Below, in pieces: positions 110-59,010 of a DNA stretch of 64,000 nt (positions are counted from its first letter, which is position 1; every line of letters starts with the position of its first letter). The stretch is from a phage. The stretch is taken from assembly GCA_012401045.1 (NCBI GenBank), contig GCA_012401045.1_4704.2; one strand, given 5' to 3'. The notes below the pieces were generated by a model that saw only the letters and a program-made list of their open reading frames with translations, made no database searches and was not told where the DNA came from. A program made the translations under genes and the position numbers.

Positions 110-1546
110 TTACTTTTTCGATGACGCTTTCTCAAGAATCTTGAAAAAGGTCATACCTATACCGACAACGGCCGCGGTTATGCTCGCAGCGGCTTTCCAA
201 ACATCGACGTTACGTTGACGTCGCGCTTCTTCCGCTTCACGTTGTCTTTTTGCCTCTTCATCACGTCGACGTATCTCAGCAGCAAACTCGTCGTGCTTAC
301 GTTTGGATTCTTCGTCTCGACGACGAAGTTCAGCGACGAATTCTTCATGTTTGCGTTTAGCCTCGTCGTCACGACGTTTTAAATCAGCTTGATAATCTTC
401 GTGTATTTGTCTACGTAGATCATCTTGACGCTTCATTTCGGCTTGGTGTTGTTCCATCCTACGTTTTTGTTCGTCTTTAAGCTGATCGAGTTCGGCTTTA
501 TGTTGTTCATCGCGCAGCTTTGCGTCGGCGCGATGCGCCTCATGCATCTGTGAGATAACTGCCTTGTGTTCATCCGCCATACGTCGCATTTCAGCCATCA
601 CCCCTTTAAGGGTTTCTTCTGATGCCTTACGTTCGTAGCTACGTTGGTCGAAATCATTTTTGTAGGCTTCTTTTTGGATGGGGTCGCGCCAATGCAATGC
701 CGATTCACGTGTCGGAAAAACATTGTACTTCCACATCTCTTTTTCCAAATCTTCGACCGGTACGAAGATGGAGTCATTATTCCCGAAGGTAACCAACATG
801 CCTGGCGCGCCTGCTCCATTCGTTGGTTTTATTTCGAACGCTTTCCCCAACACGTTAACCCATAAGCTATACGGATTATGAAAGTCGGGCGGCGTCCAAT
901 GGATAGTGAGTTGCGTTCCGAGAATCCGGAAACCCTCTGTTTTTCCCGTCAAGCTCCGCGCGCACGTTGCGATGTAGGGGTGATCAATCCCTTTCGTAAC
1001 GTGGTCTGCGCTTTTGTATTCTCCTTTAACTTTTACGATTGCCACGTTGATTTGCGCGACATAAGCGGGTTGATTAAAGTTCAACGTGTTGAGGTCAATT
1101 TGACATATTTCATCCAGCGTATCGTACCAGTCTTGCTGGTCTAATAGACGCGGCATTTTCTCTGTGTTAACAATACGACGGATATGCGGTTTCCTTATCG
1201 CGTAACCTGTACCGTTTTTAACACGGAGTATATCCCGACGTCTACCCGCGTAGACGAAGTTTCTGAATGCACCATTCGCATTAGATACGTCATGGCTGTC
1301 AACTATTACAGGACTACGAAATTTTGAACGTCGTACGATCCTGAATGTATTGCCGTCCTCAACCCTACCAGGAATGTACTGGAACATATTGTCGGAGGTG
1401 ATAACCAACACGGTATGGCCAGATTCATTAATACATGCCCATCCTAATTCCAGGTCATATAACGGTTCAGCATAACCGTCAATGCGATAAGCGTGCGTAC
1501 CATCCCACGGTTCGAACGCGGTATCACATATTGGCATGGAGGGCAT
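110..1546 (-). CDS. tail-anchored coiled-coil protein with C-terminal tandem basic/acidic repeats and one predicted C-terminal TM helix
   Basis: 480-aa track ORF (110..1552) begins at TTG; first ATG is codon 3 with GGAGG 6 nt upstream. Repeated RRRDEE-[AS]KRKH-[DE]EF-[AV]AE units, then hydrophobic AAASITAAVVGIGMTFF. Confidence 0.7.
   Translation of the reverse strand: MPSMPICDTAFEPWDGTHAYRIDGYAEPLYDLELGWACINESGHTVLVITSDNMFQYIPGRVEDGNTFRIVRRSKFRSPVIVDSHDVSNANGAFRNFVYAGRRRDILRVKNGTGYAIRKPHIRRIVNTEKMPRLLDQQDWYDTLDEICQIDLNTLNFNQPAYVAQINVAIVKVKGEYKSADHVTKGIDHPYIATCARSLTGKTEGFRILGTQLTIHWTPPDFHNPYSLWVNVLGKAFEIKPTNGAGAPGMLVTFGNNDSIFVPVEDLEKEMWKYNVFPTRESALHWRDPIQKEAYKNDFDQRSYERKASEETLKGVMAEMRRMADEHKAVISQMHEAHRADAKLRDEQHKAELDQLKDEQKRRMEQHQAEMKRQDDLRRQIHEDYQADLKRRDDEAKRKHEEFVAELRRRDEESKRKHDEFAAEIRRRDEEAKRQREAEEARRQRNVDVWKAAASITAAVVGIGMTFFKILEKASSKK
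200..400 (-). repeat. in-frame tandem DNA repeats encoding the RRRDEE-KRKH-EEF coiled-coil units of 110..1546
   Basis: Repeated cgacg/ttcttc-rich ~45-60-nt units visible on the plus strand. Confidence 0.5.
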
Positions 1547-1695: not shown

Positions 1696-1715
1696 TCACC
1701 TAGGTAATGTAAGCG
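1696..1715 (-). promoter_or_regulatory. third, partial copy of promoter-like motif (TCACCTAGGTAATGTAAGCG)
   Basis: Shares the TCACCTAGGTAATGTA core; upstream of 110..1546. Confidence 0.3.
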
Positions 1716-1745
1716 TCAAATTTTTTCTATTCGCAACGATAAACG

Positions 1746-1794
1746 GCATAGAAACCTCCCCCAACCCTTGCGGGCTGAGGGAGGCTGACTTATG
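1746..1794 (-). terminator. palindromic GC-rich hairpin (GCATA-CCTCCC...GGGAGG-TATG family) downstream of capsid gene
   Basis: Inverted repeat with polypyrimidine/polypurine arms, extended by GCATA/TATG flanks. Confidence 0.55.
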
Positions 1795-1883: not shown

Positions 1884-4106
1884 TCAGTTAGTCTGAACCG
1901 GCAGCTTGATGTTTTCAGTGTAGACCTTACGCAGGTTCACAACGTTAATCAGACCCAGCAGCGGGCAGTTGTTAACGAAGCGGCAGCGCGGCTGAACCAT
2001 GGTTTCTTTAGAAACCTGACCGTTACGGGTAACCTGAGCAACAGATACCAGTTCCGGTACGTACAGGAACATACCGAAGGTCAGCGGATCCGGAGAACCC
2101 TGGATACCACGAGACAGGGTCACGAAGATCTTATCGCGCAGCATGACGTTCGGGTTATCTACAACCACGAAGTTGAAGCTTACACCGACGGTACGGAAAT
2201 CGCCATCGGTCTGCAGGAACTGCGGGATGTAGTTGTCAGTTGCTACTACGCAACGCGGTTTCTCATCGGCGTTGGAAGACAGCAGCTGCAGAGCTGGCTG
2301 ATAACCAGACTCGGAGTACATGCGGTATGCCATCTCACGAATCACGTTCATGATCGCAGCAGACACTTCAGCACGACGTTCTGCAGTGGTGGTACCCTGA
2401 ACAGATTTCTCCAGGTCCAGATTGATTTCTTCGAACCACGGACGGATCAGGTAACGACCGAAACCTTCGATCTGGATGTCACCGAACTGACGGAAGCGAG
2501 AGGTCGCAACCGCTTTCAGTGCGTCTTTGTAGCTGAACAGTTTCTCAACCATCAGGTTGTCGAAACGTGCGTTAGCAGCTTGGATCAGAACGTCCAGGTC
2601 AGCAGCGTTTTCTTCCCAATCCAGCGGACGAGGAATGGAGAACGGAGCCAGCAGGCCGATTGCGTAACGTTCTTGCTTCATGTTGAAGTCAAGGTGCTTA
2701 CCGCGTTCACGACGGTTGCTGTTGTTACGGCGGATACGCAGTTCGTAACCAACCAGTTTGAAGCTCAGGTCTTCAGCCAGTTGTTTGAACTCTTCGCTCT
2801 TACGCGGTTGTTCGATGTTGTCCTGATCAACCAGGCGATACAGTTCAGCGTTAGCGCCGTTAACACGCAGACCCGCTTTCTCTACGTTGGAAGAACCGTA
2901 AACTTCGATCGCCAGCTGAGCAGCAGATTTCGCATCGATGATGTCCTGCAGCGCTTCGGCTTTCGCACCTTTAACGTCTTTGGTGTTCTCATCAACGAAG
3001 ATGGAGTGGGTGTCGAACGCCAGGGTCATTTTGCGGAAGTCGCCTTCCAGGGATTTCTGGAAACCGTTGGTGATCAGACCAGATACGTCGAACGGTACGT
3101 AAGAGGTTTTGCTGTGCTTGGTAGATTTGATTTCCACCAGGATTTTGGTCAGCGTGATCTGGGCGTCCAGCGCGTCGGTGTTGTCGCTATAACCGTTAGC
3201 CAGGATGCTATCGTCTTCAGCGATACCGATCATGTCGATCAGTTTATCAACAGCCAGGTAAGACGTTTTATAAGTTACGCCTTTAATTTCGATGTCGCGC
3301 GGAGCAACGATAGCTTTGTCAACGAAGTACTGCGCGTTAGCATCGTCAGCACGATAGATCGGATGCAGATCGGTCACGTCGTTGGACAGAACGTCGTTGT
3401 ACATGAACGCATCCAGCAGCGGACGACGTACCCAATCAGCCGGAGTACCGTCGGCGTTACGACGCAGGTGGTTGAACACCAGCGGACGACGGAAAGATAC
3501 GTCGTAACCGATCTGGTTCGGAGCCAGAACGATGGTGTTGTACAGTTCGTTACCCATGCGGCTCAGACGAGAAGCCTTCACGTTGAACACAACGGAGTAC
3601 GGCATCATGTCACGCAGTTCTTTCTGGTCGTAGGACAGCTGAACCAGTTCTTCAGATTCGCAACCGCAGGAATCAGCAGCCATCATGACGAAGTTAGAGC
3701 TGTCAACTTCACGGCCAGACGGAGTGGTGCTGATGTTCATGGAACGTGCTTGTTTAGCATATTCCACCGGGTTACCATGAGCCAGCATGATCAGTGCTGC
3801 TGCACGAGCCTGCTGTGCGTTCATGGTGAACAGCTGTTCTTCAATACGCTGCTTCTCTTCCGGAGTGGTGGTTTCGAAGCCCAGCATGGACAGAACCGGT
3901 TCTTCTGCTTTACGGATGTCGCTGCTGAAGCTCTTAACATCCATTTCGTTAACCAGTTTGTCCATGGATTTGAAATCAACCTTAGAAGCAGATTCCATAG
4001 ACAGGAAGGTGTTCTCCAGACCTTTGTCTGCTGGTTTGCTACCATTAGCGGTCAGGAACTGGCGAGTGGCCGCGACCTGTTGGCTAAGAAGGGTTTTATC
4101 ATTCAT
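1884..4106 (-). CDS. putative major capsid protein (740 aa); tail sheath not excluded
   Basis: Long ORF with strongly host-optimal codon usage (cgt/ctg/ggt/aac/gaa), AAGGA RBS 8 nt before ATG, hairpin terminator downstream. Size matches major capsid proteins of phiKZ-like phages. No homology search run. Confidence 0.45.
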   Translation of the reverse strand: MNDKTLLSQQVAATRQFLTANGSKPADKGLENTFLSMESASKVDFKSMDKLVNEMDVKSFSSDIRKAEEPVLSMLGFETTTPEEKQRIEEQLFTMNAQQARAAALIMLAHGNPVEYAKQARSMNISTTPSGREVDSSNFVMMAADSCGCESEELVQLSYDQKELRDMMPYSVVFNVKASRLSRMGNELYNTIVLAPNQIGYDVSFRRPLVFNHLRRNADGTPADWVRRPLLDAFMYNDVLSNDVTDLHPIYRADDANAQYFVDKAIVAPRDIEIKGVTYKTSYLAVDKLIDMIGIAEDDSILANGYSDNTDALDAQITLTKILVEIKSTKHSKTSYVPFDVSGLITNGFQKSLEGDFRKMTLAFDTHSIFVDENTKDVKGAKAEALQDIIDAKSAAQLAIEVYGSSNVEKAGLRVNGANAELYRLVDQDNIEQPRKSEEFKQLAEDLSFKLVGYELRIRRNNSNRRERGKHLDFNMKQERYAIGLLAPFSIPRPLDWEENAADLDVLIQAANARFDNLMVEKLFSYKDALKAVATSRFRQFGDIQIEGFGRYLIRPWFEEINLDLEKSVQGTTTAERRAEVSAAIMNVIREMAYRMYSESGYQPALQLLSSNADEKPRCVVATDNYIPQFLQTDGDFRTVGVSFNFVVVDNPNVMLRDKIFVTLSRGIQGSPDPLTFGMFLYVPELVSVAQVTRNGQVSKETMVQPRCRFVNNCPLLGLINVVNLRKVYTENIKLPVQTN

Positions 4107-4255
4107 TGAAAGTATCCTTTACAGAATTAACTTATATAAGTCGGTCGATAGACCATAGCGTACACGCGTGCATGCGCCACTATAGTATCAGTAAACACTT
4201 ACCGTTATTGAGGTCGTGATACAACACTAAAAATGCCGCATAACTTTTCCCTACG

Positions 4256-4876
4256 TCATAAACGACGCAGGCGATAATGGATGGAACGATTGGTGCAATA
4301 TGAACGGAACAGCGGCAATTGCGCAACTTCCGCAAGACTCATATTAATTCGCAGGTGTTCAATAACGGCGCTGTAGTTATCAGCAATACGATCGCTCAAT
4401 AACTCTTCTGCCAATAAAGGAAGACAATCGACAACAATCGCGATCACATCCTCATTAACATAACGCACCCGAACACTCAACGGACGTTTGTCTGGGCTGT
4501 AAGTTGGATCCGCCAAACGACGTTCAATATCACGCGGATAGCTCGTCAGTAAATGGTAATAACCATTGTCATAACGATTGATGTACTCACACAGCACATC
4601 AACATTCTTCTCTGGCGGCAAACCTGTTTCGTCATAGTGATACGCAAACATACCACCAAGCAGGTTGTTAAGATGAACCGCAGGGTTCGCTTGTTCGTGT
4701 TCTTTCGTGATGAAGAAAGGCACATTTTGAGCTGCGAAATAAAAACCTACATCATTGGGCGATAGTATGCCGAAAAGACTTTTAGGGTCTAATAACACCT
4801 GTAAGTCATCACGCGCATTTCGAATAATCGCGTGTTCTACCCAATTCGGAACGACGAGATATCGGAGTTCCTTCAT
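4256..4876 (-). CDS. hypothetical protein (206 aa), immediately upstream of capsid gene
   Basis: ATG start with AGAGG RBS ~9 nt upstream; no recognisable motif. Confidence 0.7.
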   Translation of the reverse strand: MKELRYLVVPNWVEHAIIRNARDDLQVLLDPKSLFGILSPNDVGFYFAAQNVPFFITKEHEQANPAVHLNNLLGGMFAYHYDETGLPPEKNVDVLCEYINRYDNGYYHLLTSYPRDIERRLADPTYSPDKRPLSVRVRYVNEDVIAIVVDCLPLLAEELLSDRIADNYSAVIEHLRINMSLAEVAQLPLFRSYCTNRSIHYRLRRL

Positions 4877-6603: not shown

Positions 6604-6930
6604 TTAACTTATTGTCATGAATTCATTAGGTGAAAATTTCCAGCCGTTCTCAGTGAGAAGCGTGTTGAGTTTTGCCGCAACGATAAGCCATGCATGCATG
6701 GCCGTTACATCGTATTGGCGATTCACTCGACGTTGGTTTTCGATATTGATTTGCTCCTGTTCAGTGATGTTTGGATAAAGTGCGATAGCGCTAGGTTTAC
6801 CCAGCGCGCTAGTCATCACCGCCGTACATTCACTGATAATGTTGTTTAAGTGGTAGTTATACACCGTTCCACGCATGACGCGATGACGGCATTCGATAAT
6901 AGCGTCGTAAATGATTTCTCGAGTAATCAT
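6604..6930 (-). CDS. hypothetical protein (108 aa)
   Basis: ATG-initiated ORF immediately upstream of the hairpin plus T-run terminator. Confidence 0.6.
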   Translation of the reverse strand: MITREIIYDAIIECRHRVMRGTVYNYHLNNIISECTAVMTSALGKPSAIALYPNITEQEQINIENQRRVNRQYDVTAMHAWLIVAAKLNTLLTENGWKFSPNEFMTIS

Positions 6931-6936
6931 GATAAT

Positions 6937-7338
6937 TTAAAACATACGGTCGTTTTTAGCACGGGCGTCCATTACCAGATCGTAGATGCCTGCGGTTCGT
7001 AAGCACTCTTCGTAGTAACGATGTGTGCCTTCCTCAGCCATCCACGATAACCCTCGGCTATCCGCAACGATAACCAGTTTGTTATTGTTGAACGCACACA
7101 CCACACGGTAGGTCGCGTTGTTATTCGGATCGCGAGTGATAAGTTCGTAAACGCCGTTAACAGGTTTACTGAATTCGCCGTTTAACGGAACGAGTTCGGT
7201 AGTACCTTCAGCAAACGTTACGTTGATCGGTGATGGGTCTTTAGCGATAACAGTATATTCCACATTGTGTTCTTTACTGGTCATAATACCGAAGTAAGAA
7301 CTCACAGGGGAACGCGGTACACTAAGAATATTAAACAT
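6937..7338 (-). CDS. hypothetical protein (133 aa)
   Basis: ATG start with AAGAGG RBS; tightly packed with neighbours. Confidence 0.65.
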   Translation of the reverse strand: MFNILSVPRSPVSSYFGIMTSKEHNVEYTVIAKDPSPINVTFAEGTTELVPLNGEFSKPVNGVYELITRDPNNNATYRVVCAFNNNKLVIVADSRGLSWMAEEGTHRYYEECLRTAGIYDLVMDARAKNDRMF

Positions 7339-7407
7339 AAATGTTGTCCTCTTAATTGGATTTAGATTGTTGGGTATGTGATTGGAAATGAAAACGTTGT
7401 TTCGGTT

Positions 7408-7977
7408 TTAGACGATGAGTGACCAGGTGGTAAGCACCCCACTTGCGAATTCGAGCTTAAGACGTTTACCGATAAGTTGTTGCTGGATCATCTTCTCGGT
7501 GATACGTCGATCATGCTGAACCGCTTTATCAAACGCTTCTTTCGCTTCAGCTTGGTAGAAGTTCGTTTCTTCGTTTTCGTCGATCTCTTCGAGAGCATCG
7601 TCGTCGATGTCAGCAAGTTTCACTCGACCGTTTTCATCAGGTTGTTCTGCAGGTTCATTGTCATACGGCGTGTCTTTTGTTGGTGCGACACGATGTTGCA
7701 ACTCGACCTGCGTTAACATGATCTCCATCTCACCATCGATAGGAATGATTTCATCGGCGCTGCCGTTTTCGGTCAGCTCGCGACTTTCCAGTAATGTCGT
7801 CGTAACAGAGAACACCTCTTCAACAGGAACCTCATCATCGTCGATGGTGTTAACCGTGTTGCTGGTAACTTCAGCAACAACCATCAAATCAAATGCGTGA
7901 GGGTCACCTGGCATTTTGATTCCTGGAAGTTTGTTGAGGTACCAAGGATCAAGAATCATGATTTCTGGATTAAACAT
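7408..7977 (-). CDS. hypothetical acidic protein (189 aa)
   Basis: ATG start with AAAGG RBS; D/E-rich central region. Confidence 0.65.
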   Translation of the reverse strand: MFNPEIMILDPWYLNKLPGIKMPGDPHAFDLMVVAEVTSNTVNTIDDDEVPVEEVFSVTTTLLESRELTENGSADEIIPIDGEMEIMLTQVELQHRVAPTKDTPYDNEPAEQPDENGRVKLADIDDDALEEIDENEETNFYQAEAKEAFDKAVQHDRRITEKMIQQQLIGKRLKLEFASGVLTTWSLIV

Positions 7978-8053
7978 CGTATTTTACCTTTCTATGTTAG
8001 GTGGATTTCGGATAGAAGAATCAATGCATAAACTAATTTAAGTTTGTTAAGGT

Positions 8054-8956
8054 TTACTTAGCCTTTGAGTTATACGGACTAACATGTTGTTGTACTCGTT
8101 GGATTGTATCGTAGTACGGGTTAAGTTGATTGAACATGTTGTTGTGTGGGTGATAGCCATATGGCGCATTTTGCCTTGTTGGTGAGAAACCTTGTTGAGA
8201 AGGACGGTTTGAATTAACCGCGAGTACGTAGTAAACCAAATTTTGGCGGTCGAACGTTCCTTCGTTTTTGAAGGTGTCGGCGTAGGCGCTTACCGCTGGA
8301 GCGAGCCTATCACCATCGGTTGTAATGATTGTGCCATCGGGATAAACTTCCCGAACGACGCACCATGTTCCGATGAGAACATCTTTGGGTGATGTATTAC
8401 CGTATCCGGTTGTAACGGTAAGGTAAGTATCGAACCCTTCAGAACAACAAGGATGACGATAGATGGGTCCTGTCATTTCCAGTCTATCGGTGTCACCGCA
8501 TTTCTCTATTGAGAGCGATGATGTGTCGGTTTTGAAATTGTCAAATTCTTTCTTTAAGTCGATTACGGGTTCTTTCGTATAGTACTTCTTGATTGCTTTG
8601 ACGTAAAGATCGGGAACGGTTGTCAGCAATCCGTTATACCTGATTCTCAGGTTTTCGAGTAATCCAAAGATGCTCGCGCATGCCTGTTCGCGAGGTTTTG
8701 TAAGATAAGAGATCCCCCCAGGAACGCTGGGATCTTTGAGAAAGAAGATTGCGTTATTGTCGTTGTGCGATGCGTTGAAGAAAACGATTGATTCGATATA
8801 TACGGAGCATAGGCTGTCGTTGGCGTCGTCAGATAACACCCAGATGCACTCATCGGTCGTCTTGTTTAAAAGTTCTGTTTTGTCGACCAAACGTTGTTTC
8901 ATTGCGAGGAAATGTGCCTGTTGTTCAGCGGATAATTCACGATAAATGGTGGTCAT
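8054..8956 (-). CDS. hypothetical protein (300 aa), paralog of 9042..9824
   Basis: AAGGAG RBS; shares [YF]D[RT]YLT[IV]T-G and RE[IV]YPDG-I[VI]T blocks with the adjacent gene. Confidence 0.7.
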   Translation of the reverse strand: MTTIYRELSAEQQAHFLAMKQRLVDKTELLNKTTDECIWVLSDDANDSLCSVYIESIVFFNASHNDNNAIFFLKDPSVPGGISYLTKPREQACASIFGLLENLRIRYNGLLTTVPDLYVKAIKKYYTKEPVIDLKKEFDNFKTDTSSLSIEKCGDTDRLEMTGPIYRHPCCSEGFDTYLTVTTGYGNTSPKDVLIGTWCVVREVYPDGTIITTDGDRLAPAVSAYADTFKNEGTFDRQNLVYYVLAVNSNRPSQQGFSPTRQNAPYGYHPHNNMFNQLNPYYDTIQRVQQHVSPYNSKAK

Positions 8957-9041
8957 GTTGAGCTCCTTGATTACGATAAGGATGATTGCGGTTTTGTGGT
9001 GTTGGTAGGGCCCTAAACAAATGAACCCTACTAATATTAGG

Positions 9042-9824
9042 TTAATCGGGATCGGCGTAGAAATGGTGAGGATAGCCGGAGTACGATCCCGCGTTACCGG
9101 TTATGGATTCTTTCTGGGAATCGACGACGAGTGCATAGAACTGTCGGGAATTTGTTAGCGTTGAGAAATAAGAGGAAAGGACTTTTTCATTCAACGCATC
9201 GCAAGGTAGACAGGTGCGACCGCAAAACGTCACGATACGGCCGTCAGGATAGATCTCACGAATCATTCTCCACTCGCCAATATCGACTGGTGATGGCGCT
9301 GCTACACCACCTGTTATCGTTAAGTAACGATCGTACGTGGTATGGCATTCAGGATGAACGTAAATCGGTTGGGCATCAATACTATCGTTTTCTGTTTGAT
9401 CTTTATTCACGTATACCTCAAGGTAGATTGTTGGTAACCCGGTTAGAACGCCAGTGTCACGACGTTTTTTGGTAATCCGGGGACGGATATTATCGAGCAC
9501 GCCTTCCAGTTTTTCTGCGACTTCGTCAGCCGGTAATATATACCCGTATGTTGGTTCTGGGTCATCACCGTGGCTAAATAAGATACGACAGTCGTTTTTA
9601 TTAAATTCTATATCTTCAGGTGGGAAGATGATGACGCGAACCGTATGGCGTTCTGCGATATAAAATCCTTCAGGCCCCTCAGTTTTGGTAAGTGTAAAGG
9701 ACCAGGATGAATGATCTTCAAGTGACGTGCCTGCCAGGAAAAAGTCCGCCCGAATTGGTGCGTTCCATTTCGCGATCATATTGGCGTGACCAATAACGCC
9801 TAATTTTTGATAAATATCTGTCAT
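9042..9824 (-). CDS. hypothetical protein (260 aa), paralog of 8054..8956
   Basis: ATG with GAGG RBS; conserved promoter-like motif lies upstream; paralogy as above. Confidence 0.7.
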   Translation of the reverse strand: MTDIYQKLGVIGHANMIAKWNAPIRADFFLAGTSLEDHSSWSFTLTKTEGPEGFYIAERHTVRVIIFPPEDIEFNKNDCRILFSHGDDPEPTYGYILPADEVAEKLEGVLDNIRPRITKKRRDTGVLTGLPTIYLEVYVNKDQTENDSIDAQPIYVHPECHTTYDRYLTITGGVAAPSPVDIGEWRMIREIYPDGRIVTFCGRTCLPCDALNEKVLSSYFSTLTNSRQFYALVVDSQKESITGNAGSYSGYPHHFYADPD

Positions 9825-9858: not shown

Positions 9859-9910
9859 GATAACAGTAACCGCTGTTATCACCTAGGTAATGTAGTCGCG
9901 AAATAAACTG
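9859..9910 (-). promoter_or_regulatory. conserved ~30-nt promoter-like motif (ATCACCTAGGTAATGTAGTCGCGAAATAAACTG) with adjacent palindrome GATAACAG-N6-CTGTTATC
   Basis: Near-identical copy at ~47084-47135 and partial copy at ~1696-1715, each upstream of a minus-strand gene start and downstream of a family hairpin. Confidence 0.4.
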
Positions 9911-9930
9911 GAGTAATGCGAAATAAGACA

Positions 9931-9975
9931 GCATAAGCCCTCTCCCAACCCGTAAGGGAAGGGAGAGGGAATATT
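9931..9975 (-). terminator. hairpin of the GCATA-CCCTCTCCC...GGGAGAGGG family
   Basis: Abuts stop of 9974..11341. Confidence 0.55.
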
Positions 9976-11341
9976 AAACGGTTGGACGAACGGTGTTGTC
10001 TTTTTCTGGTGCAAGCCATAACGTGACCGTACCATGGCATGTCCACTGTGGTTCACGTACAGAAGAACCTGCCATTGTAACAGCGCAATCGGTACGCATG
10101 ATAACCCCGTATGCTTCGCAGAGATTGTTATCTTGCATCCACACAACTTTAGCAGGCATGCCGGGATACAACATATCCATGTTTGCGTATTCCCACACCA
10201 ACTGCATTGTTCTACCGCGTAATCCAGCAGTATTACTTAATTCACGCCATCGGTTATCGGTTACGCGTCCCATCCCTTTCGCCACCTTCACGTTATCGCT
10301 ACGTTCTTCAGTTACGTACTCGCTAACGTTTACGGTACGACTGATTATCGTATCACCCCCTTTTGATAACGTCATTCCCTGACTCATCTGACTTGCCGAA
10401 ACAAAACGCCCACCCGCATTACCTAACAACGAAGCCGCGTTATTGATGTCGCTTACCGACGCCCCTCTCGTACATGCAATTTCCACGTATTTGTCACGAT
10501 TGATCCAGGTCTTGTCCATGCCCGGAAACATGTCGGCAGGATAGTTGTAAAAGATAGCCGTGCGCCGACCGTCAGAGAAACGGGTTTCGTCGTAGAGAGG
10601 ATAAATATACAGATACGGAGATTGATAATAACAACCGACATCCGCTGAATAAATACCGACCTGGTTCTGGATTTTGTCTACGAGATCCATTGCGTTGGTG
10701 CCGTGCGGAAGAATAAGCAACTTGAACAGGTTGTCGTTATTCGGTGCAACAATATCCACGCCCTGCATTTTGAACCCGGTGTCGGCTTCAACCGCAGAAA
10801 GTATCTTGCTGAATTCGAGCCGTAACACATCCAGCACTTTCGACCCGGTATAGTTTTCACCGGTTTCTGATTGCATGAAGCTTTCAAGAACAGGATCGAA
10901 CAGTTGAAATTGAAGATCGACCATTTGTTCGTAGTCTTTCTTCGAAGAATCGGTTGCGGTACGTTCGTCGTTAGCAGACATACGACTGTCTACGGTTGTT
11001 AAACAAACCGCTCGGTAGACGTAAGCTTGTGCGGCATCGTCTACGGTTTGGCGTTGTCCGCGCATCAGGCTGTACGCCTGCACGATGATGCGCATTTTAA
11101 GTTGTTGTTGGTACGGTAGAATGTATTTTCCGTAACTGCCGGGCGGGAACTTTACAGAGATATAGAGTTCATCTCCAGCGTTACGTTCATAGTCTCGATA
11201 CGTGTGGACTTGAGTCACTAAAGGAACAGACACCGTCATTGACGGCGTGATTAATTCCGCGGTGACTTTATACGCAACAGCAACTGCTTCCTGCGCAAAT
11301 GTACCGATATACCGTCCTAACGGCGTCTGTTTGTAATCCAT
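9974..11341 (-). CDS. hypothetical protein (455 aa), likely virion-associated
   Basis: Long ORF, stop abuts hairpin terminator; translationally coupled to upstream gene. Confidence 0.7.
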   Translation of the reverse strand: MDYKQTPLGRYIGTFAQEAVAVAYKVTAELITPSMTVSVPLVTQVHTYRDYERNAGDELYISVKFPPGSYGKYILPYQQQLKMRIIVQAYSLMRGQRQTVDDAAQAYVYRAVCLTTVDSRMSANDERTATDSSKKDYEQMVDLQFQLFDPVLESFMQSETGENYTGSKVLDVLRLEFSKILSAVEADTGFKMQGVDIVAPNNDNLFKLLILPHGTNAMDLVDKIQNQVGIYSADVGCYYQSPYLYIYPLYDETRFSDGRRTAIFYNYPADMFPGMDKTWINRDKYVEIACTRGASVSDINNAASLLGNAGGRFVSASQMSQGMTLSKGGDTIISRTVNVSEYVTEERSDNVKVAKGMGRVTDNRWRELSNTAGLRGRTMQLVWEYANMDMLYPGMPAKVVWMQDNNLCEAYGVIMRTDCAVTMAGSSVREPQWTCHGTVTLWLAPEKDNTVRPTV

Positions 11342-39840: not shown

Positions 39841-41592
39841 ATGAGCGAACAAGAACGAAAACCTAAGAAGAAACTGCTCGGTATTCAATGTCGACACATC
39901 AGCTATAACGAAGCGAACGATGGCAGCAAGAACGACCTCATGATCGCAAAAGAGATCATGTTCTTTGATGACAATACGCAAGCGACGAACCTTCGCTTCT
40001 TTGAGAATTACAAACGTCCGTTTTGGGTGACGGTAGAGAGTAAACGTAAGAACAAATATAAAAAGGAAAGCGAGAAGCTCTCGCATGTGCGTCGCTACGA
40101 TGTCCGCCAAAGCGAACTGGTTGAAAAGATCAGCTCGGTACTTTATAAAAGACGTGCTGACGATAACACCCGTTTACAGCAGCTTGCACGGAGTCCATAC
40201 CTCTATGGAACGGACGTTAGCGCCAGCTGTTATTTAAAAACCCAGTACAACACAAAATGGCCGGAATACGTCGATAAATTACCCGCTTCCATTGCCTGTT
40301 TCGATATCGAAACCGACGTTGTCCACGGACACGGTAAGATCGTTTGTATGTCTATTACAATGGGATACAATGCGATACTTTGCTATACCAAGGACTTCGT
40401 TGGTCATATTCCGAATGCCATTGAGAAAACCCATGAGAAGATTCGATATTACCTGGCCGAACGTCTGAATACCAAAGAAGATCCCCACGCATTCGAAAAA
40501 TATCAGTACGATGTTCGAATCGTAGAAAGCCCGGCACAAGCGGTCATCCAATGCATGCAGAAGGTTCACGAATGGCAGCCGGATTATCTCCTTGGCTGGA
40601 ATATCGCGTTCGATATTCCGCGCATGCTCCAGGCACTGAACGAGGAAGGGTATCGTCCCGAGGATGTTTTCTCCGATCCCCGTATACCACCTAAATATCG
40701 TATTGCTCGCTGGGTACCACCGAAGACCGACAAGGTATCTGCTTCAGGTCGTAAAACCAACCTTACCCTTGAGCAAACCTGGCCGATGTTTTATACGATG
40801 GCTACGTATCAGGTTATGGATGCGATGTGTGGCTATAAGTTCGTTCGTTTAGGAAGACCGGATGAAGGACGCTATTCACTCGATGCGGTGTTAGAGCGAA
40901 ATAAATGCCATACGAAATTAAAAGCTATTCCTGGTACAGAGGGGTTCACGGAGCTTGCCTGGCACGAAGAGATGCAAACGAACCATCAAATCGACTACGG
41001 CGTATATAACCTTTGGGATAACCAGGGTATTGAGGCGTTGGACCAGAAAACAAAAGACTATTCGATGACCATCCCTATCCGTTTAGCGGCGTCGGATTTG
41101 AAAGATTTCAGTTCTAACCCTAAACGTATCTGCGATAAACTTTTCTTCGTTTATCTTAACCGTGGGGAAGTCATGGGATGTACCGCTGACGACATGACCC
41201 AGGAAGAAGATAAGTGGGTTATCTCACGAGCTGGACATATCGTCACATTACCATGCGATCTCATGGCTGACAACGGCATTCATCTCTTCTGGGATATGCC
41301 GAACCTGAGAAGTTATATCCGTCTATTCGTTGCAGACCTTGACATTAGCAGTTCATACCCGAATGGGCAGATCCTGTTGAATCTATCCAGAGCGTGTGTT
41401 TTTCGCGAGCTCTCACGCATTGAGGGCGTCTCTGACTATCAATTCAGGAAGTTAGGTATCAACTTTATTACCGGAGGTAAAACGAACGCTGTAGACTTCT
41501 GTAGAATCGTTTATAAAGCACCATCGATGTTTGAACTTTTAGAACATTTCGATGCAACGCGTCCAAAAGAGGAAGCGCGGACCATCGAATGA
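39841..41592 (+). CDS. family-B DNA polymerase N-terminal fragment: 3'-5' exonuclease domain plus polymerase motif A
   Basis: Exo I FDIETD, Exo II WNIAFD, Exo III YNLWD, then DISSSYP matching motif A (DxxSLYPS); ORF ends ~80 aa later with no motif B or C. Confidence 0.6.
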   Translation: MSEQERKPKKKLLGIQCRHISYNEANDGSKNDLMIAKEIMFFDDNTQATNLRFFENYKRPFWVTVESKRKNKYKKESEKLSHVRRYDVRQSELVEKISSVLYKRRADDNTRLQQLARSPYLYGTDVSASCYLKTQYNTKWPEYVDKLPASIACFDIETDVVHGHGKIVCMSITMGYNAILCYTKDFVGHIPNAIEKTHEKIRYYLAERLNTKEDPHAFEKYQYDVRIVESPAQAVIQCMQKVHEWQPDYLLGWNIAFDIPRMLQALNEEGYRPEDVFSDPRIPPKYRIARWVPPKTDKVSASGRKTNLTLEQTWPMFYTMATYQVMDAMCGYKFVRLGRPDEGRYSLDAVLERNKCHTKLKAIPGTEGFTELAWHEEMQTNHQIDYGVYNLWDNQGIEALDQKTKDYSMTIPIRLAASDLKDFSSNPKRICDKLFFVYLNRGEVMGCTADDMTQEEDKWVISRAGHIVTLPCDLMADNGIHLFWDMPNLRSYIRLFVADLDISSSYPNGQILLNLSRACVFRELSRIEGVSDYQFRKLGINFITGGKTNAVDFCRIVYKAPSMFELLEHFDATRPKEEARTIE

Positions 41593-41635
41593 TTCAAGTA
41601 GGTTGATCCTCGCTTAACAAAAAAGAAAACACATG

Positions 41636-41685
41636 CGAAGCCCCTCCCCCTGGCGGAAGCCGGAGGGAGGGGTGAGGTTTATGCG
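41636..41685. terminator. bidirectional hairpin (CCCCTCCC...GGGAGGGG) between convergent genes
   Basis: Between stop of DNA polymerase fragment gene (+) and stop of 41679..42164 (-). Confidence 0.55.
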
Positions 41686-42164
41686 CGTTCGTTACCAACC
41701 GTTACTTTGTAGTCAGCGTCGGTTAAGAAAATAGACAGGAATCCATGTTCTTTGCAAATCTTACTAAGGATGTCAGCAATGATTTCGTTGATCATCGGCT
41801 TGTTTGCAAGGGCATAGATGTACCCGGGTGTAAAAGAAAGTGCGTGATTGATCATAGGCTCATGAGAAGCCAAGATAAGGATCACGTGATGCTTCCCATC
41901 GTCGGTAACGACCGCTTGCGTAGACACGAAGAAATCAGTGAAGCAGCAGCGATCACAGGCTTTAGGTATATACAAGTCACCCAGAGCTTCGTCACGTGCT
42001 TTTACGTGTGTTTCAGGGGTGATGCTGCTAAGTTGATCTTCAGCGAGATCCAAGACATCCTCAATCGTTTTAAGAATAGCGTTGCGGAAATCCTCACGGT
42101 AGAATGGGATGATATCACGATCGTTCATGTAATCGCCGGATTCGATAGTAAAGTTGATGTTCAT
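41679..42164 (-). CDS. hypothetical protein (161 aa)
   Basis: AGGAG RBS 6 nt before ATG; convergent with DNA polymerase gene across a hairpin terminator. Confidence 0.65.
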   Translation of the reverse strand: MNINFTIESGDYMNDRDIIPFYREDFRNAILKTIEDVLDLAEDQLSSITPETHVKARDEALGDLYIPKACDRCCFTDFFVSTQAVVTDDGKHHVILILASHEPMINHALSFTPGYIYALANKPMINEIIADILSKICKEHGFLSIFLTDADYKVTVGNERA

Positions 42165-42234
42165 TGAATGCTCCTAGTGGTTATGTCGATTGATCGATGT
42201 ATTGATTTATGTTTGAAGGTGTTGTTCACCTTCG

Positions 42235-42699
42235 TTAGATATCGTCATCCGTGGTGCCGTAGGACATATGCTGAATTAATTTTCTCGGCTCGATGAAAAT
42301 ACGACATGTGATAAACACATCGGGATCGTATTGCTCCACGCAACGTCCGAAGGTTTGTTTTGCGGCTTGGCGCATCGATGTTATTTCCTGATCGTTCATC
42401 GCATTATCGAATTCGATGTTGATCGTGATTTTATCGGGAAATAAATAGATAAAGTAATCGCCGCTGATACCACCATCATCAAAGTGACGTTCATTGTAGC
42501 ACTGGACGAGCTTACCTTCACGTTCTTTCTGATACCATCCAAGGATACTATTAAGACCTCTGTCCACGCATTCGAATGCTTGAGTAATAACATCCTCAAC
42601 GACGGATGCAGGCGTGGGACCATTGAATAGACGATCTAAGCGCTTTTTCATCGATTTGGTTTTCTCGTTCATGATTTCTTTTCCTGTTATAATCGGCAT
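42235..42699 (-). CDS. hypothetical small protein (154 aa; alternative start at 42672)
   Basis: First ATG lies inside a hairpin element; internal ATG (codon 10) has AGGA RBS. C-terminal QYDPD resembles the EYDPD paralog family. Confidence 0.6.
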   Translation of the reverse strand: MPIITGKEIMNEKTKSMKKRLDRLFNGPTPASVVEDVITQAFECVDRGLNSILGWYQKEREGKLVQCYNERHFDDGGISGDYFIYLFPDKITINIEFDNAMNDQEITSMRQAAKQTFGRCVEQYDPDVFITCRIFIEPRKLIQHMSYGTTDDDI

Positions 42700-42740
42700 A
42701 CAACCCTTCCCCGGCCTGATGGCTAGGGAAGGGGCTATGC
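42696..42740 (-). terminator. hairpin variant (GCATA-CCCTTCCCC...GGGAAGGGG-CTATGC)
   Basis: Downstream of 42748..43146. Confidence 0.5.
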
Positions 42741-42747
42741 TACGTTG

Positions 42748-43146
42748 TTATGCTTCGCAATCAGCTGAAGGCGTCGCGCCTTTCTTACCAGCGATACACC
42801 AAATCCGACACGCTGGGTAATGGTTAACCTCTAGAGAGCAAGGAATGTTATATTTCTCTTCCAGCGCATAAAGACATTTCGTTAGCTGCTCCAGCGCGTT
42901 CTCGTCGTGTCGTAACGCGTGGTGGCCTAATCGATGTTGGTCGTTCTTTATATACGCCTCGAAGAGAACATGTTGGCGATGTACGCTGACGTTTACAGCC
43001 TCGAGTATAGCTTGGTCGAGCATACGACTAAAGCACATCAACGAGTCAGATACGTTTTCTCGCTTAACCAGATCAATCATGGCGGGAATATACGAATGGT
43101 CGATGTTATCGATGACCGCTTTAGCGACGGAATCAGCAACGTTCAT
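42748..43146 (-). CDS. small protein (~132 aa), paralog of 43183..43578
   Basis: Track ORF starts at GTG (43176); first ATG (codon 11) aligns with the paralog N-terminus; shared EEKYNIP[CF]SLEVN block. Confidence 0.65.
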   Translation of the reverse strand: MNVADSVAKAVIDNIDHSYIPAMIDLVKRENVSDSLMCFSRMLDQAILEAVNVSVHRQHVLFEAYIKNDQHRLGHHALRHDENALEQLTKCLYALEEKYNIPCSLEVNHYPACRIWCIAGKKGATPSADCEA

Positions 43147-43182
43147 CTTTTTAATCCCTAGTTTGTTATTGATCACGTATAT

Positions 43183-43578
43183 TTACTCTTTGACGTCAGT
43201 TGTCGTTTCGACATGCTTCTCACTACTGACGTACCAGAGCAGGTACGCTGGGAAAAGATTGACCTCTAAGCTAAATGGAATATTGTATTTCTCTTCCATT
43301 TTACAGAGATGTTCTTTAAGTAAATTTCTCGCGTCTCTGTCACCACGAACAGAGTGCCAGTCTAGTTCTTTGTTCTCCTTTACCAGGACCTCTACGATGA
43401 TACGTTGCTCGTGAACCTCGGTTTTCACAGTGAAAAGTAAATCGCTGCTATCAAAACGGGTAAAACGAATGTATGAACCAGGTGTTTTTTCTTGTTTAAT
43501 AATATCGATCATGGTAGAAATGCGCGGATGATCGATGTTGTCGTTAACAGCTTTAACGATGGATTCTACAATGCTCAT
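43183..43578 (-). CDS. small protein (131 aa), paralog of 42748..43146
   Basis: AAGGA RBS; paralogy as above. Confidence 0.65.
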   Translation of the reverse strand: MSIVESIVKAVNDNIDHPRISTMIDIIKQEKTPGSYIRFTRFDSSDLLFTVKTEVHEQRIIVEVLVKENKELDWHSVRGDRDARNLLKEHLCKMEEKYNIPFSLEVNLFPAYLLWYVSSEKHVETTTDVKE

Positions 43579-43610
43579 TTTTTATCCTTAATGTTATCGA
43601 TTTGGAAATA

Positions 43611-44378
43611 TTACTTATTTTTGCTTTCTTTATAGACAGTTGTTACCCACGATGGGAAAGCCGGATGGAAACAGAGCGTGAACGTAACTGTCGTATCGTA
43701 TTTAAACGCACAGTTCACTAACCGGGTATCTAACGTTTTCCTTAATCCGTCATCATCGTTATCGATGATGGTCATATCTCTTAATATCCCAAGCACGTTA
43801 ACGCCATCGGGTGTCTGGGTTACGACAAGTCGTCGTAATGGCCCGCATGTATAGTCACGTACAAATCCTTTCTTCGGGTCCGATACCCTGTTTAACGCAT
43901 CGTGATTTTTGATGAATTCATCGGCGATACAATAGGTTTGTTCCCTTGCTTTATCGGGATCGTATTCTGCTAATAGTTCCTTCGTGTCGAACGTTATCAT
44001 GTTATTATCATTCGATTCAGAAGGGAAGCATAAAACTAAACGAACAGGGTACTCGTATTGATCTGTTCTCGTTTCGAAAGCATTAGCTAAACACGGCTTG
44101 TATGCCTTTGCGTCGACATTGTCCAAACATGGATGCAATAATGCATGAATAACGGCACCATCGTCAGTTAAACCGAATTCCAGAAATTGTACCCTATCAG
44201 TATCCGCTACGGTTTTCTGAAGGTACGCTTTACCGTTAACAATATCGGTATCCCACATATCGTCGTTTAACGATTCTTCAAACTTATCGAATATATGGTT
44301 TACGAGATTGACGAGTTCATCAATACGGCACTGTTGGTTGAATTCGATTAATCGTTGAACTTTATCTTTGATAGACAT
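43611..44378 (-). CDS. hypothetical protein (255 aa) related to the EYDPD small-protein family
   Basis: Contains LAEYDPD block shared with 44381..44839, 44839..45300 and 45372..45866. Confidence 0.65.
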   Translation of the reverse strand: MSIKDKVQRLIEFNQQCRIDELVNLVNHIFDKFEESLNDDMWDTDIVNGKAYLQKTVADTDRVQFLEFGLTDDGAVIHALLHPCLDNVDAKAYKPCLANAFETRTDQYEYPVRLVLCFPSESNDNNMITFDTKELLAEYDPDKAREQTYCIADEFIKNHDALNRVSDPKKGFVRDYTCGPLRRLVVTQTPDGVNVLGILRDMTIIDNDDDGLRKTLDTRLVNCAFKYDTTVTFTLCFHPAFPSWVTTVYKESKNK

Positions 44379-44380
44379 GA

Positions 44381-45300: not shown

Positions 45301-45371
45301 TTTTTAACACCTTCGACACCTTTTAACCGATACGTGTCCCATCTAACAAGGGACACGATATCGTTGATTAA

Positions 45372-46512: not shown

Positions 46513-46610
46513 ATCGAATTCCTTAAATTCTCTTGAGTTCAATTAATGATGAAAAGCTGTAAAAAAAGGTGGGGCGAACCCCACCAAAACGTCAGACACA
46601 CGCAGGAAAA

Positions 46611-47036
46611 TTAATTCAGTGATGCATATAAGGCATAACGACTGTAGATCTCAACCGCCGGTCCGTTATGTGTTAACAGACCATCCTGGTTGTAATACTG
46701 GAAAAATGAATAACGTTTGTCGAAGTGATAAACAAAAGCGATGTCTTTGCCGTCAAAACCTGTGATGCGTGGTCTGTTTTTATCTAGCAATGCTTTGACT
46801 TTTAACAGTGTTGCCGCACGTGCTTTAACGTTAGGGATCAAGCCATCACAATCGATATAAACGGTGTAACCTGTTTCAGATGTTGCGACGGTTGTATTGC
46901 GATTGACGCGGAAGATTTTTGTTTCGTATGTACTATCTTCAAGAATTGGGTTTTGTTTTTCGTATTTTCGTTTACGTAGAAATTCTACAACGGTGATATA
47001 GTTAGCGGTAATATGCCCGGTTATTGCTTGTAACAT
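46611..47036 (-). CDS. hypothetical protein (141 aa)
   Basis: AAGGA RBS; conserved promoter-like motif ~70-100 nt upstream. Confidence 0.65.
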   Translation of the reverse strand: MLQAITGHITANYITVVEFLRKRKYEKQNPILEDSTYETKIFRVNRNTTVATSETGYTVYIDCDGLIPNVKARAATLLKVKALLDKNRPRITGFDGKDIAFVYHFDKRYSFFQYYNQDGLLTHNGPAVEIYSRYALYASLN

Positions 47037-47083: not shown

Positions 47084-47135
47084 GATAAGATATTTTGCTC
47101 TTATCACTAAGGTAATGTAGTCGCGAAATAAACTG
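47084..47135 (-). promoter_or_regulatory. second copy of conserved promoter-like motif with adjacent palindrome GATAAGA-N8-TCTTATC
   Basis: ATCACTAAGGTAATGTAGTCGCGAAATAAACTG; ~70-100 nt upstream of ATG of 46611..47036. Confidence 0.4.
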
Positions 47136-47156
47136 CGTTAACACGAAATAAAAACA

Positions 47157-47212
47157 GCATAGAACCCTCCTCCCCCATCCTTCAAGAGGACGGTGGGAAG
47201 AGGGAGAGATTA
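47157..47212 (-). terminator. hairpin of the CCCTCCTCCC...GGGAAGAGGG family
   Basis: Overlaps stop of 47210..47611; followed on minus strand by the conserved promoter-like motif. Confidence 0.5.
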
Positions 47213-47611
47213 AATGTCGTGGACGGCAATGCCGTTTAACCAGCAATACAGCTTAACGCGACACGGATACCGCTTCGTTGCGGCAACCATTTCATCGCGT
47301 AAACGCTGGTAGATTTCATCCTGGTGTTCACGTTCAATGGGGTAATCAGCCCAACATTCGATCATGACATCACCATTCGTCAGAATCGTCGTACGCATCC
47401 TGTCCTGGATACGGCGGTCTTTCCCGGCATTAGGGAAATACATTCCTTCAGTACGAATAAGGTCGCCGCAGGGCATGACTAACCATTCGTTCGTTTTGCC
47501 GGTATTCTTATAATCCATTACGGCTTGCATTGCGGTGTCAACGCTAAAAGAAACATAATTCCAAACGGATGTCCAACGATAGATTGCGGGTTGTTCGAGT
47601 GTTTCGTTCAT
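47210..47611 (-). CDS. hypothetical protein (133 aa)
   Basis: ATG-initiated ORF followed by hairpin element at stop. Confidence 0.6.
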   Translation of the reverse strand: MNETLEQPAIYRWTSVWNYVSFSVDTAMQAVMDYKNTGKTNEWLVMPCGDLIRTEGMYFPNAGKDRRIQDRMRTTILTNGDVMIECWADYPIEREHQDEIYQRLRDEMVAATKRYPCRVKLYCWLNGIAVHDI

Positions 47612-48476: not shown

Positions 48477-49778
48477 TTAACTAATATAAAGTTCAGGATC
48501 GTAAGGCGCTAACGATACACTGGCGTTATGCATTGCTTTCATCATAGTGTTCATGAAAACGTTGTTTACACCGGTGATCTCTGCCCCGATCGCGTCTGGG
48601 GTTGGAGCCATCGCGTTACCGCAACAGGTAGCACAGTATTCCAATGGGCCTGCTTTACAACGTTGAGGATCGCGTAACTTGATGGTTTGTCCTTCCAAGG
48701 AAGCAAGTAATTCAGCATCAATAAGTTTAAGCGCCGCACCGTCGATCATGTAACGGCCGACAAGCAGCTTATCTTTGATATGATCGCGGTTTACCGTGAA
48801 CAGAATATGTTCGTGGGTACCGCAGTCGTCCATCGTGATTTTAAGGTTCTGTGTCGCACGTTGTGATTCTTTCGCCGTCTGTCCCGCTAAAGCGGTCAGT
48901 GCGCCACGTGAGAACGAACCTGCACGTGCACTGTTGTTGTACTCCGCCCAATGGTCGACACGCATCCCTTCAGCCAGGCTGTGTGTGATAACGTTACGTT
49001 TACCAGGGTCAACGAAGTCGGCTTCAACCCCCATCATGATGTGTGTTTTCTTTCGAGTATTACCGAAACTCTTGCCTGGGTTAATATAGAACCCTTCCGA
49101 TTCGTCGCCCTTAAAGGATTCTTTATCCATTTTGGTTAGCGTGGCTTCGAGTTTGATCAGTTCTTCAGGCGTGAACTTACCTTCCTCTTGTAAGCGTGCT
49201 AACTCTTTATCGCGATAGGCAATAATATCATCATCGACCGTTAACGCTTTATCACTCATTGATGGAACAATTAAACGGTTGATAGCGGTTAATGCGCTGA
49301 TATTGTTGGTGAATTTCTTCACTTCGCTTGCGTACAACGGACCAATTGGACGTTCGTTAGGATCGGGTATTCCCTCTTCAGGATCGTCCGCTACGCGTGG
49401 CGCAATCAGTGACTCCAGTGTACCGCTGGTCAACCGTCCTGCCTGGTATTCAATCTGAATACCGAAAGCATCATAAAGGACGTACATATTGAACAACGCT
49501 TCACCGAAGGTTGTGGTGGTTGTATTCTTAACCGACGGTAGATCACCAGGTGCAAGCTCCAATGACTCCCAGAAACTCAACAAGGGTTTTGTTGGCTCGG
49601 TTTCCCATTGGTGTTCTTCACCGTCGATGGTAACCGTAACGACGTTACCTTGACGACGTAATTTAGGCTGATACTTCTCAGCGCCGCCTTCCGTAAAAGC
49701 AAATGCGTCGTTAATCCATTCAAGATAACGGTAGTGCCCTTCACGCATCGCGTAAAGGAAATATTCACGAGGTGTCAT
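48477..49778 (-). CDS. multisubunit RNA polymerase beta-prime-like fragment (bridge helix region; 433 aa)
   Basis: AAGGAG RBS. EGMRVDHWAEYNNSARAGSFSRGALTALAGQTA resembles the beta-prime bridge helix ([27 protein letters not shown]); TMDDCGTHEH matches the DDCGTHEG segment that follows it in bacterial RpoC. No NADFDGD, so it is a fragment. Confidence 0.55.
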   Translation of the reverse strand: MTPREYFLYAMREGHYRYLEWINDAFAFTEGGAEKYQPKLRRQGNVVTVTIDGEEHQWETEPTKPLLSFWESLELAPGDLPSVKNTTTTTFGEALFNMYVLYDAFGIQIEYQAGRLTSGTLESLIAPRVADDPEEGIPDPNERPIGPLYASEVKKFTNNISALTAINRLIVPSMSDKALTVDDDIIAYRDKELARLQEEGKFTPEELIKLEATLTKMDKESFKGDESEGFYINPGKSFGNTRKKTHIMMGVEADFVDPGKRNVITHSLAEGMRVDHWAEYNNSARAGSFSRGALTALAGQTAKESQRATQNLKITMDDCGTHEHILFTVNRDHIKDKLLVGRYMIDGAALKLIDAELLASLEGQTIKLRDPQRCKAGPLEYCATCCGNAMAPTPDAIGAEITGVNNVFMNTMMKAMHNASVSLAPYDPELYIS

Positions 49779-53849: not shown

Positions 53850-53859
53850 TGCAAAGGTA

Positions 53860-53905
53860 ACATAACCCTCCTCCAACCCGTAAGGGAAGGAGGAGGGCTT
53901 ATGCT
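53860..53905. terminator. bidirectional hairpin (CCCTCCTCC aacccgtaaggg AAGGAGGAGGG) between convergent genes
   Basis: Between stop of macro-domain gene (+) and stop of 53907..54281 (-). Confidence 0.6.
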
Positions 53906-53906
53906 G

Positions 53907-58158: not shown

Positions 58159-58260
58159 GGTGTTGTCCTATACGTTGGTGGTTGAGGTGGCGGATATCGG
58201 ATGCGTGTTGTCGTCAGGTAATACATACAGAAACGCCCACTGATAAAACAGCAGCTTCTT

Positions 58261-58917: not shown

Positions 58918-58963
58918 TTTATACCTCGTTCCTATTCTCAAAAAGGAAATTTCATACGATGAC

Positions 58964-59006: not shown

Positions 59007-59010
59007 TTAA

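Follow-up and report, generated by a model that had tools for sequence, protein, structure and literature searches.

A motif of about 30 nt recurs in the 64,000-nt stretch of phage DNA analysed here (the window), each time upstream of a minus-strand gene. The sequence-only reading counted three copies and saw in them either a class of phage-polymerase promoters or the binding sites of a phage regulator, serving a small co-regulated gene set. The question is which of the two the motif is and, if it is a promoter, which RNAP would read it.

By genome comparison, window positions 1–64000 are colinear with positions 41555–103498 of Escherichia phage vB_EcoM_Goslar, at 82–98% identity in blocks. 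The window phage is a close relative of Goslar (Goslarvirus, Chimalliviridae), a nucleus-forming jumbo phage. Because the minus strand is the coding strand of nearly all window genes, the motif is read here as its reverse complement (...CAGTTTATTTCGCGA-CTACATTAC-CTAGGT-GA...). In this gene sense it is TTT-N6-TAYATTAC-N6-G, with exactly three copies in the window, all on the minus strand (TTTCGCGACTACATTACCTAGGTGA).

The three copies reported earlier are all present, two being near-exact and the third degenerate. The 27-mer TAGGTAATGTAGTCGCGAAATAAACTG occurs at 9884–9910 with no mismatch and at 47109–47135 with one, at an expectation of zero in shuffled sequences, and copy 3 has only a 17-nt core in common with them, at 1696–1712 with one mismatch. 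A short degenerate 16-mer alone is not significant (three in the window against 1.5 expected), so copy 3 was judged with a better model, a PWM.

Copy 1 (9879..9915, minus strand) scores 54.3 bits and consists of TTT, six nucleotides, the core CTACATTAC at 9895..9887, six nucleotides and the predicted +1 G at 9880; it is conserved in four Goslar-like genomes. Copy 2 (47104..47140, minus strand; 52.9 bits) has the same core CTACATTAC at 47120..47112 and its predicted +1 G at 47105. Copy 3 (1696..1732, minus strand; 49.3 bits) is of an 'A-tract' subclass, aaaaaatTTGACGCTTACATTACCTAGGTGA, lacks a strong palindrome and has its predicted +1 G at 1697. The Goslar orthologues of copies 1, 2 and 3 are sites 49717, 86690 and 43251 with predicted +1 positions 49718, 86691 and 43252. 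Measured from the predicted +1, the start codons follow at 56, 69 and 151 nt, which corrects the earlier distances of 70–150 nt and leaves copy 3 with an unusually long leader.

The whole-genome search that had been proposed for the motif was run on Goslar with a PWM built from Goslar sites only and seeded by a mismatch scan of the whole Goslar genome. It gives 14 sites at 35–56 bits; the interval from 14 to 35 bits is empty, and shuffles do not exceed 11 bits. The same PWM scores the three window copies at 49–54 bits, everything else in the window below 14 and shuffled genomes at most 11, the window scores being partly self-fitted as the three sites are orthologous to Goslar training sites. 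As an independent check, Goslar site 160776 was outside the seed set and still scores 36.9 bits. The small set of three genes envisaged at first thus gives way to a genome-wide regulon, predicted to be early, with 14 promoters in Goslar.

All the sites, 14 in Goslar and three in the window, are intergenic, in gene sense and 25–152 nt 5′ of start codons, which excludes a dispersed repeat that has nothing to do with gene starts. The core CTAYATTAC is found in 13 of the 14 Goslar sites, the exception being site 151619 with CTACATAAC. Its C variant, present in 6 of the 14, fits the consensus of phage EL and is conserved between genomes. A G stands exactly 6 nt past TTAC at every one of the 14 Goslar and three window sites and forms, at the sequence level, a high-information column. 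Across four Goslar-like genomes the promoter block is near-invariant, while the DNA just after the start codon diverges completely.

These features belong to a known class. According to a review of the jumbo-phage RNAPs, every RNAP-encoding jumbo phage has a conserved motif 5′ of its early operons, differing from phage to phage and centred near -10, and wherever tested the motif proved to be the early promoter of the injected virion RNAP. The published early-promoter consensus is TATATTAC for phiKZ, TTTRARR_BTATATTACDWHDGTG for 201phi2-1, WTTTYAAACCTACATTATY for EL (in short CTACATTAT) and ...TTTCARRYAKATATTATYWAAGTG for N1M2/OBP. The AR9 early promoters are AAATATATATTAT-(6N)-G+1 (...TATATTAT-(6N)-G+1), and the phiKZ and phiR1-37 transcriptions also begin 6 nt after the element. 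Our literature search met no paper describing this promoter motif for Goslar specifically.

A T-rich element upstream of about -19, at a fixed spacing, belongs to this class: each of the three window copies, like phiKZ (TTTAAACAG-TATATTAC), has TTT, then six nucleotides, then TAYATTAC. Where phiKZ has TATATTAC the window copies have TACATTAC, a 7/8 match, and this TACATTA variant is the EL form. The Goslar sequence CTATATTACTTAGGTG fits the 201phi2-1 consensus BTATATTACDWHDGTG at all positions, although the two phages differ in host (Pseudomonas for 201phi2-1, E. coli for Goslar) and in the upstream spacer, which has R in 201phi2-1 and C/G in Goslar. AR9 resembles Goslar in the AT-rich -10 element, the 6N spacing and the G start, but differs in its uracil-containing genome, the absence of a phage nucleus, a core ending in T rather than C and an AT-only upstream tract.

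The motif also transfers across genera. When the Goslar-only PWM is applied to phiKZ, 13 of the 14 top matches are phiKZ TATATTAC-6N-G sites, and the best of all is the promoter of PHIKZ054, the chimallin gene, at 28.4 bits against at most 11.2 in shuffles. Of the 28 TATATTAY-6N-G sites in phiKZ, 26 lie on the main coding strand; a published count of its early promoters is likewise 28. The phiKZ early promoters have been put at 28–32 sites, read by the virion RNAP.

The gene context is also in agreement. One Goslar site lies 66 nt 5′ of the chimallin gene, identified by a full-length match to PDB 7sqt, and another 89 nt 5′ of the homologue of PHIKZ074, an nvRNAP subunit (PDB 7ogp, E=4e-63). 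The chimallin promoters of phiKZ and Goslar align near base for base (GAAAAAAATTTGAGATTTATATTACTAAATTGAAT vs GAAAAAAATTTCAGGGTTATATTACCTAGGTGAAT). The Goslar chimallin is presumably gp189, or gp246 in the preprint numbering. In phiKZ, an early promoter has been found at chimallin, and the nvRNAP genes are early.

Overall, phiKZ and Goslar agree at 7–8 of the 8 core positions, in the TTT exactly 6 nt 5′ of the core and the G six nucleotides 3′ of it, in the coding-strand bias and in the site at chimallin, in addition to the retrieval of phiKZ sites by the Goslar PWM. They differ in the -6 to -1 segment, which is CTAGGT-like and G+C-richer in Goslar but AT-rich in phiKZ, and in the spacer, which is CACGGC or CGCGAC in Goslar and AAACAG or GAGATT in phiKZ. 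Early sites number 14 in Goslar versus about 28 in phiKZ, and inverted repeats straddling the start site are found at Goslar sites and not at phiKZ sites.

Two kinds of upstream sequence (-40 to -16) were noticed in both phages. One has an A-tract (gaaaaaaaTTTgag in phiKZ, gaaaaaaaTTTcag in Goslar) and includes window copy 3. The other has 'TCnAACAT' (attcaaacatatTTTaaacag in phiKZ, aatccaacattTTTcacggc in Goslar), of which window copies 1 and 2 show a variant. This hints, at the level of sequence, at two flavours of early promoter conserved across genera.

From the sequence match, the distribution over the genome, the orientation, the gene context and the transfer between genera, we conclude with a probability of about 0.9 that the motif serves a Goslar-like, nucleus-forming jumbo phage as its early promoter, read by the injected multisubunit virion RNAP. 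The acting polymerase, the exact +1 and the early timing in this phage are assigned by homology. The promoter would comprise a T-tract, six nucleotides, the -10-centred core (C)TAYATTAC, six nucleotides and the conserved G as the predicted start. It would be recognised by the injected multisubunit virion RNAP as in the homologous phages phiKZ, 201phi2-1, phiR1-37 and AR9. With such an RNAP entering together with the DNA, transcription of the downstream genes would start within minutes of infection and would need neither host RNAP nor new protein synthesis.

Mass spectrometry of Goslar virions found five vRNAP subunits, gp78 among them, and an orthologue of gp78 (99.5%) is encoded in the window at 48477..49778 on the minus strand as a subunit of the virion RNAP that would read these promoters. 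In AR9, the early transcription is insensitive to chloramphenicol, which showed the use of the early promoters by the virion RNAP. Also in AR9, one deviation from the consensus inactivated a predicted early promoter, so individual window copies, which carry TACATTAC, could be weak or dead.

The earlier proposal of a phage-polymerase promoter class holds, as the core, the T-tract spacing and the downstream G all match the published phiKZ-like early-promoter consensus. A phage polymerase is retained, and it would be the multisubunit virion RNAP, not a T7-type enzyme. A T7/SP6-type promoter, 23 bp long from -17 to +6, was rejected: the Goslar annotation has only beta/beta′-like multisubunit RNAP fragments, and the motif fits the class of the multisubunit vRNAP. 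The string TAGGTGA partly resembles the SP6 promoter, by coincidence.

A more serious alternative concerns the second RNAP of such phages. The motif might serve the non-virion RNAP in middle or late transcription, or both polymerases, in place of the injected virion RNAP. Promoter classes are indeed mixed at some genes of 201phi2-1 and phiKZ, with PHIKZ054 having both early and middle promoters, and all three window copies sit within late or structural gene clusters. The published nvRNAP motifs are different, however, with TACT centred at -22 for the middle class and TATG(+1) for the late one, whereas the core, the spacing and the +1 G here fit the early class and the sites precede the chimallin and nvRNAP genes. 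We regard the nvRNAP alternative as improbable, though it survives better than the others.

Reading by the virion RNAP makes the motif the Goslar-clade version of a well-described promoter class, and such a prediction is routine. Mildly novel leads come only from the lineage-specific inverted repeats at the start site and from a hypervariable early cassette.

A palindrome had been claimed for each copy on its upstream side. Strong repeats of 8 bp accompany two copies, and at 1696 there is only a 4-bp repeat. In gene sense, moreover, the palindromes are downstream of the motif, starting at or adjoining the predicted start site. For copy 1, the inverted repeat GATAACAG-cggtta-CTGTTATC (9859..9880, minus strand) begins exactly at the predicted +1 and is predicted to form a 5′ stem-loop of -9.5 kcal/mol. 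For copy 2, GATAAGA-gcaaaata-TCTTATC (47084..47105, minus strand; -7.6 kcal/mol) also begins at the predicted +1.

Such repeats are enriched in Goslar. The best perfect inverted repeat within -10 to +32 reaches 6 bp or more at 7 of the 14 sites and 8 bp or more at 4 of them, compared with 9% and 0.7%, respectively, of GC-matched controls; shuffling of the non-conserved tail gives similar levels. Windows shifted 45 nt downstream of the Goslar sites are at the background level. The phiKZ early promoters (TATATTAC-6N-G sites) show no inverted-repeat enrichment, with a mean of 4.6 against 4.5 in controls, so the repeats belong to the Goslar lineage rather than to the whole family. The enrichment is a modest, lineage-specific extra.

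In RNA, the palindromes starting at +1 would most likely, as we tentatively propose, give the early mRNAs a base-paired 5′ end. Stem-loops at the 5′ terminus stabilise bacterial and phage mRNAs, as in the ompA leader and the T7 phi10 leader. Like these leaders, the predicted transcripts are paired from +1 in the MFE fold of +1 to +30 at 6 of the 14 Goslar sites, namely the orthologues of copies 1 and 2 and four more; unlike them, the pairing is not universal. A 5′ hairpin as a universal feature was rejected, with +1 paired at only these 6 of 14 and P varying from 0.0004 to 0.035 with a threshold chosen post hoc. As the start of the left arm varies between -10 and +16, pairing in the RNA does not by itself account for all sites, and at the several sites where the arm starts upstream of +1 the full hairpin cannot form in RNA.

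The comparison of genomes suggests, from the sequences, that the inverted repeat is maintained under selection. Between Goslar site 113782 and its counterpart in genome L013 the stems are identical and 4 of the 13 loop bases differ. The copy 1 repeat in a related 183-kb IMG/VR contig (L010) has kept its outer 6 bp with a changed interior. In another contig (L008, IMGVR_UViG_3300011560_000001), the orthologue of site 47104 has a new 9-bp palindrome made from the promoter's own -7 to +2, and the copy 2 hairpin is still present 53 nt farther downstream, altered only by a substitution in its loop.

The palindromes could instead be dimer-binding sites in an operator for a phage DNA-binding repressor or activator, as they adjoin the motif and inverted repeats are significantly enriched at the Goslar sites. 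They vary, however, in sequence, length (3–9 bp), loop (3–14 nt) and position of the left arm (-10 to +16), and they give way to unrelated palindromes at orthologous sites, which does not fit a single protein with sequence specificity. What stays invariant has no symmetry and is the same as the known promoter consensus. The binding site of a phage regulator, offered earlier as the second choice, is dispensable for explaining the data, and we hold an operator to be quite unlikely, even less likely than an nvRNAP promoter.

An N4-type promoter, in which a hairpin of fixed geometry upstream of +1 is what the polymerase recognises, was also rejected: the repeats have no constant sequence, length, loop or position (-10 to +16), and some sites, as well as phiKZ, lack them. 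An Rfam scan of the whole window gave 0 matches at the gathering threshold.

Upstream of each window copy, the 'family hairpin' noted earlier is confirmed at 40–43 nt 5′ of the promoter core. These hairpins are predicted intrinsic terminators of the phiKZ type, whose published motif is BCCYCCCCHWWDGGGRRGGBYTTATKYYGT. All three have a stem of C-tract and G-tract with -25 to -31 kcal/mol and a tail of the YTTATKYYGT type. They share the stem and tail type with phiKZ but have longer stems (9–15 bp), some with an internal second helix.

The copy 1 terminator (9928..9969, minus strand) has the hairpin CCCTCTCCC...GGGAGAGGG and the tail CTTATGCTGT at -25.3 kcal/mol, and would end a virion-protein-like gene at 9974..11341. 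That of copy 2 (47154..47204, minus strand; -31.4 kcal/mol) carries the tail TCTATGCTGT and would end gene 47210..47611 (gp76). That of copy 3 (1743..1786, minus strand; -29.4 kcal/mol) carries the tail TCTATGCCGT and lies 3′ of a major-capsid-like gene at 1884..4106. Each window promoter would be insulated from its upstream gene by the terminator 40–43 nt upstream. A fourth terminator of the family was seen on the plus strand at 53853–53910 (CCCTCCTCC...GGAGGAGGG plus CTTATGCTGT, -24.7 kcal/mol), with no early promoter after it.

A terminator followed by a promoter as an obligatory module was rejected, with a strong hairpin directly upstream at only about 4 of the 14 Goslar sites. The pairing in the window is probably due to early units lying inside late clusters.

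That copies 1 and 2 are nearly identical might also mean a duplicated or mobile terminator-promoter cassette without promoter activity of its own. The two copies, at 9879 and 47104, have about 60 nt in common, a stretch that begins in the terminator tail and reaches +5, well past the core. At the junctions there are indels, one additional gene and an insertion of 53 nt bordered by a repeat of the 3′ half of the promoter. Against this, the eleven other Goslar sites have the promoter elements without these flanks, most of them without an upstream terminator, and phiKZ has these elements too. Duplication or recombination accounts for the long stretch of similarity, is compatible with the promoter function and is probably its consequence; a cassette devoid of promoter activity has very little probability.

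The two larger insertions were observed in L008 at 3830–4440, orthologous to window 47100–47210. An additional gene, about 480 nt long and followed by a family-type terminator of its own, precedes the promoter there, and a 53-nt hairpin-rich insertion follows right after the promoter core, bounded by the repeat of the promoter's 3′ half (CCTTAGTGA ... CCTAGGTGA). The sequences suggest recombination or insertion events targeting promoter sequences.

A host sigma70 promoter is the least credible of all and practically negligible: TTGACG lies 5′ of the core in copy 3, but a consensus scan of copies 1 and 2 (-35 TTGACA and -10 TATAAT, 16–18 nt apart) finds no match overlapping the motif on the gene strand, in line with the first impression of no sigma70 likeness, and the infection by the phiKZ family is independent of host RNAP.

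With the early promoter of the virion RNAP as the preferred reading, the transcription units can be predicted. The copy 1 unit would span 6604..9824 on the minus strand with the genes 9042..9824 (260 aa), 8054..8956 (300 aa), 7408..7977, 6937..7338 and 6604..6930, and has no minus-strand terminator-like site before a convergent gene. The copy 2 unit (46568..47036, minus strand) would hold a single 141-aa ORF at 46611..47036, orthologous to Goslar_00075, and is closed by a canonical intrinsic terminator at 46585..46568 (GGTGGGGTTCGCCCCACC then T7). The copy 3 unit would begin with gene 110..1546 on the minus strand (478 aa, orthologue of Goslar_00040) after a 5′ UTR of 151 nt, and runs off the window.

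Searches of six flanking proteins against Pfam and PHROGs gave no functional assignment, the first genes having no recognisable domain, and tblastn of the 260-aa protein against 50k phage records gave no match. The 260-aa and 300-aa genes (window 8054–9824, minus strand) are tandem paralogues with 25% identity (E=2e-19) and no Pfam or PHROG match. Their counterparts in L010 (10965–12668) are 48% and 27% identical, with flanks at 97–98%. Goslar lacks the pair; what follows the conserved ATGAC there is only an ORF remnant of about 24 codons. Since the divergence starts right after the start codon, the pair resembles an early accessory cassette that evolves fast within a fixed slot for expression.

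At the same place in Goslar, the annotated Goslar_00047 (63 aa, MK327938 49584–49772) begins on the upstream side of the promoter and takes in sequence of the terminator tail, the promoter itself and the +1 hairpin. The annotation is probably spurious, the true first ORF being the remnant of about 24 codons.

A broader scenario is speculative and, to us, rather doubtful as a whole. The Goslar lineage may have gained a short inverted repeat straddling the start site on an ancestral phiKZ-type promoter, the repeat being selected despite sequence turnover, and with it the conserved terminator, promoter, leader and ATG may form a fixed 'expression socket' in which fast-evolving early accessory genes are exchanged. 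If so, the 5′ hairpin could protect the early mRNAs from 5′-end-dependent decay or from the RNA-sensing defences of E. coli. Instead, the repeat at the start site could modulate the initiation or the escape of the virion RNAP.

Practically, TTT-N6-TAYATTAC-N6-G(+1) is a usable definition of the early promoter for the Goslar-like coliphages and delimits an early regulon in an E. coli model of nucleus-forming phages. It flags uncharacterised genes, including the hypervariable paralogue pair absent from Goslar, as probable early genes for host takeover or anti-defence. It also offers promoter parts for engineering, where the phiKZ consensus early promoter is already in use. The conceptual gain is small, such a motif being already established in each RNAP-encoding jumbo phage; the nearly identical chimallin promoters of phiKZ and Goslar mainly underline how conserved the vRNAP specificity is across hosts.

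Elsewhere, the window has two more variable regions, 41333–45394 and 58207–62147, where the colinearity with Goslar breaks or falls to 82–90% identity. Among the genes of the matching Goslar regions are Goslar_00069, an HNH/NUMOD1 endonuclease gene, the small hypothetical genes Goslar_00070-00073 in a row, and the tail-fibre genes Goslar_00089 and 00090.
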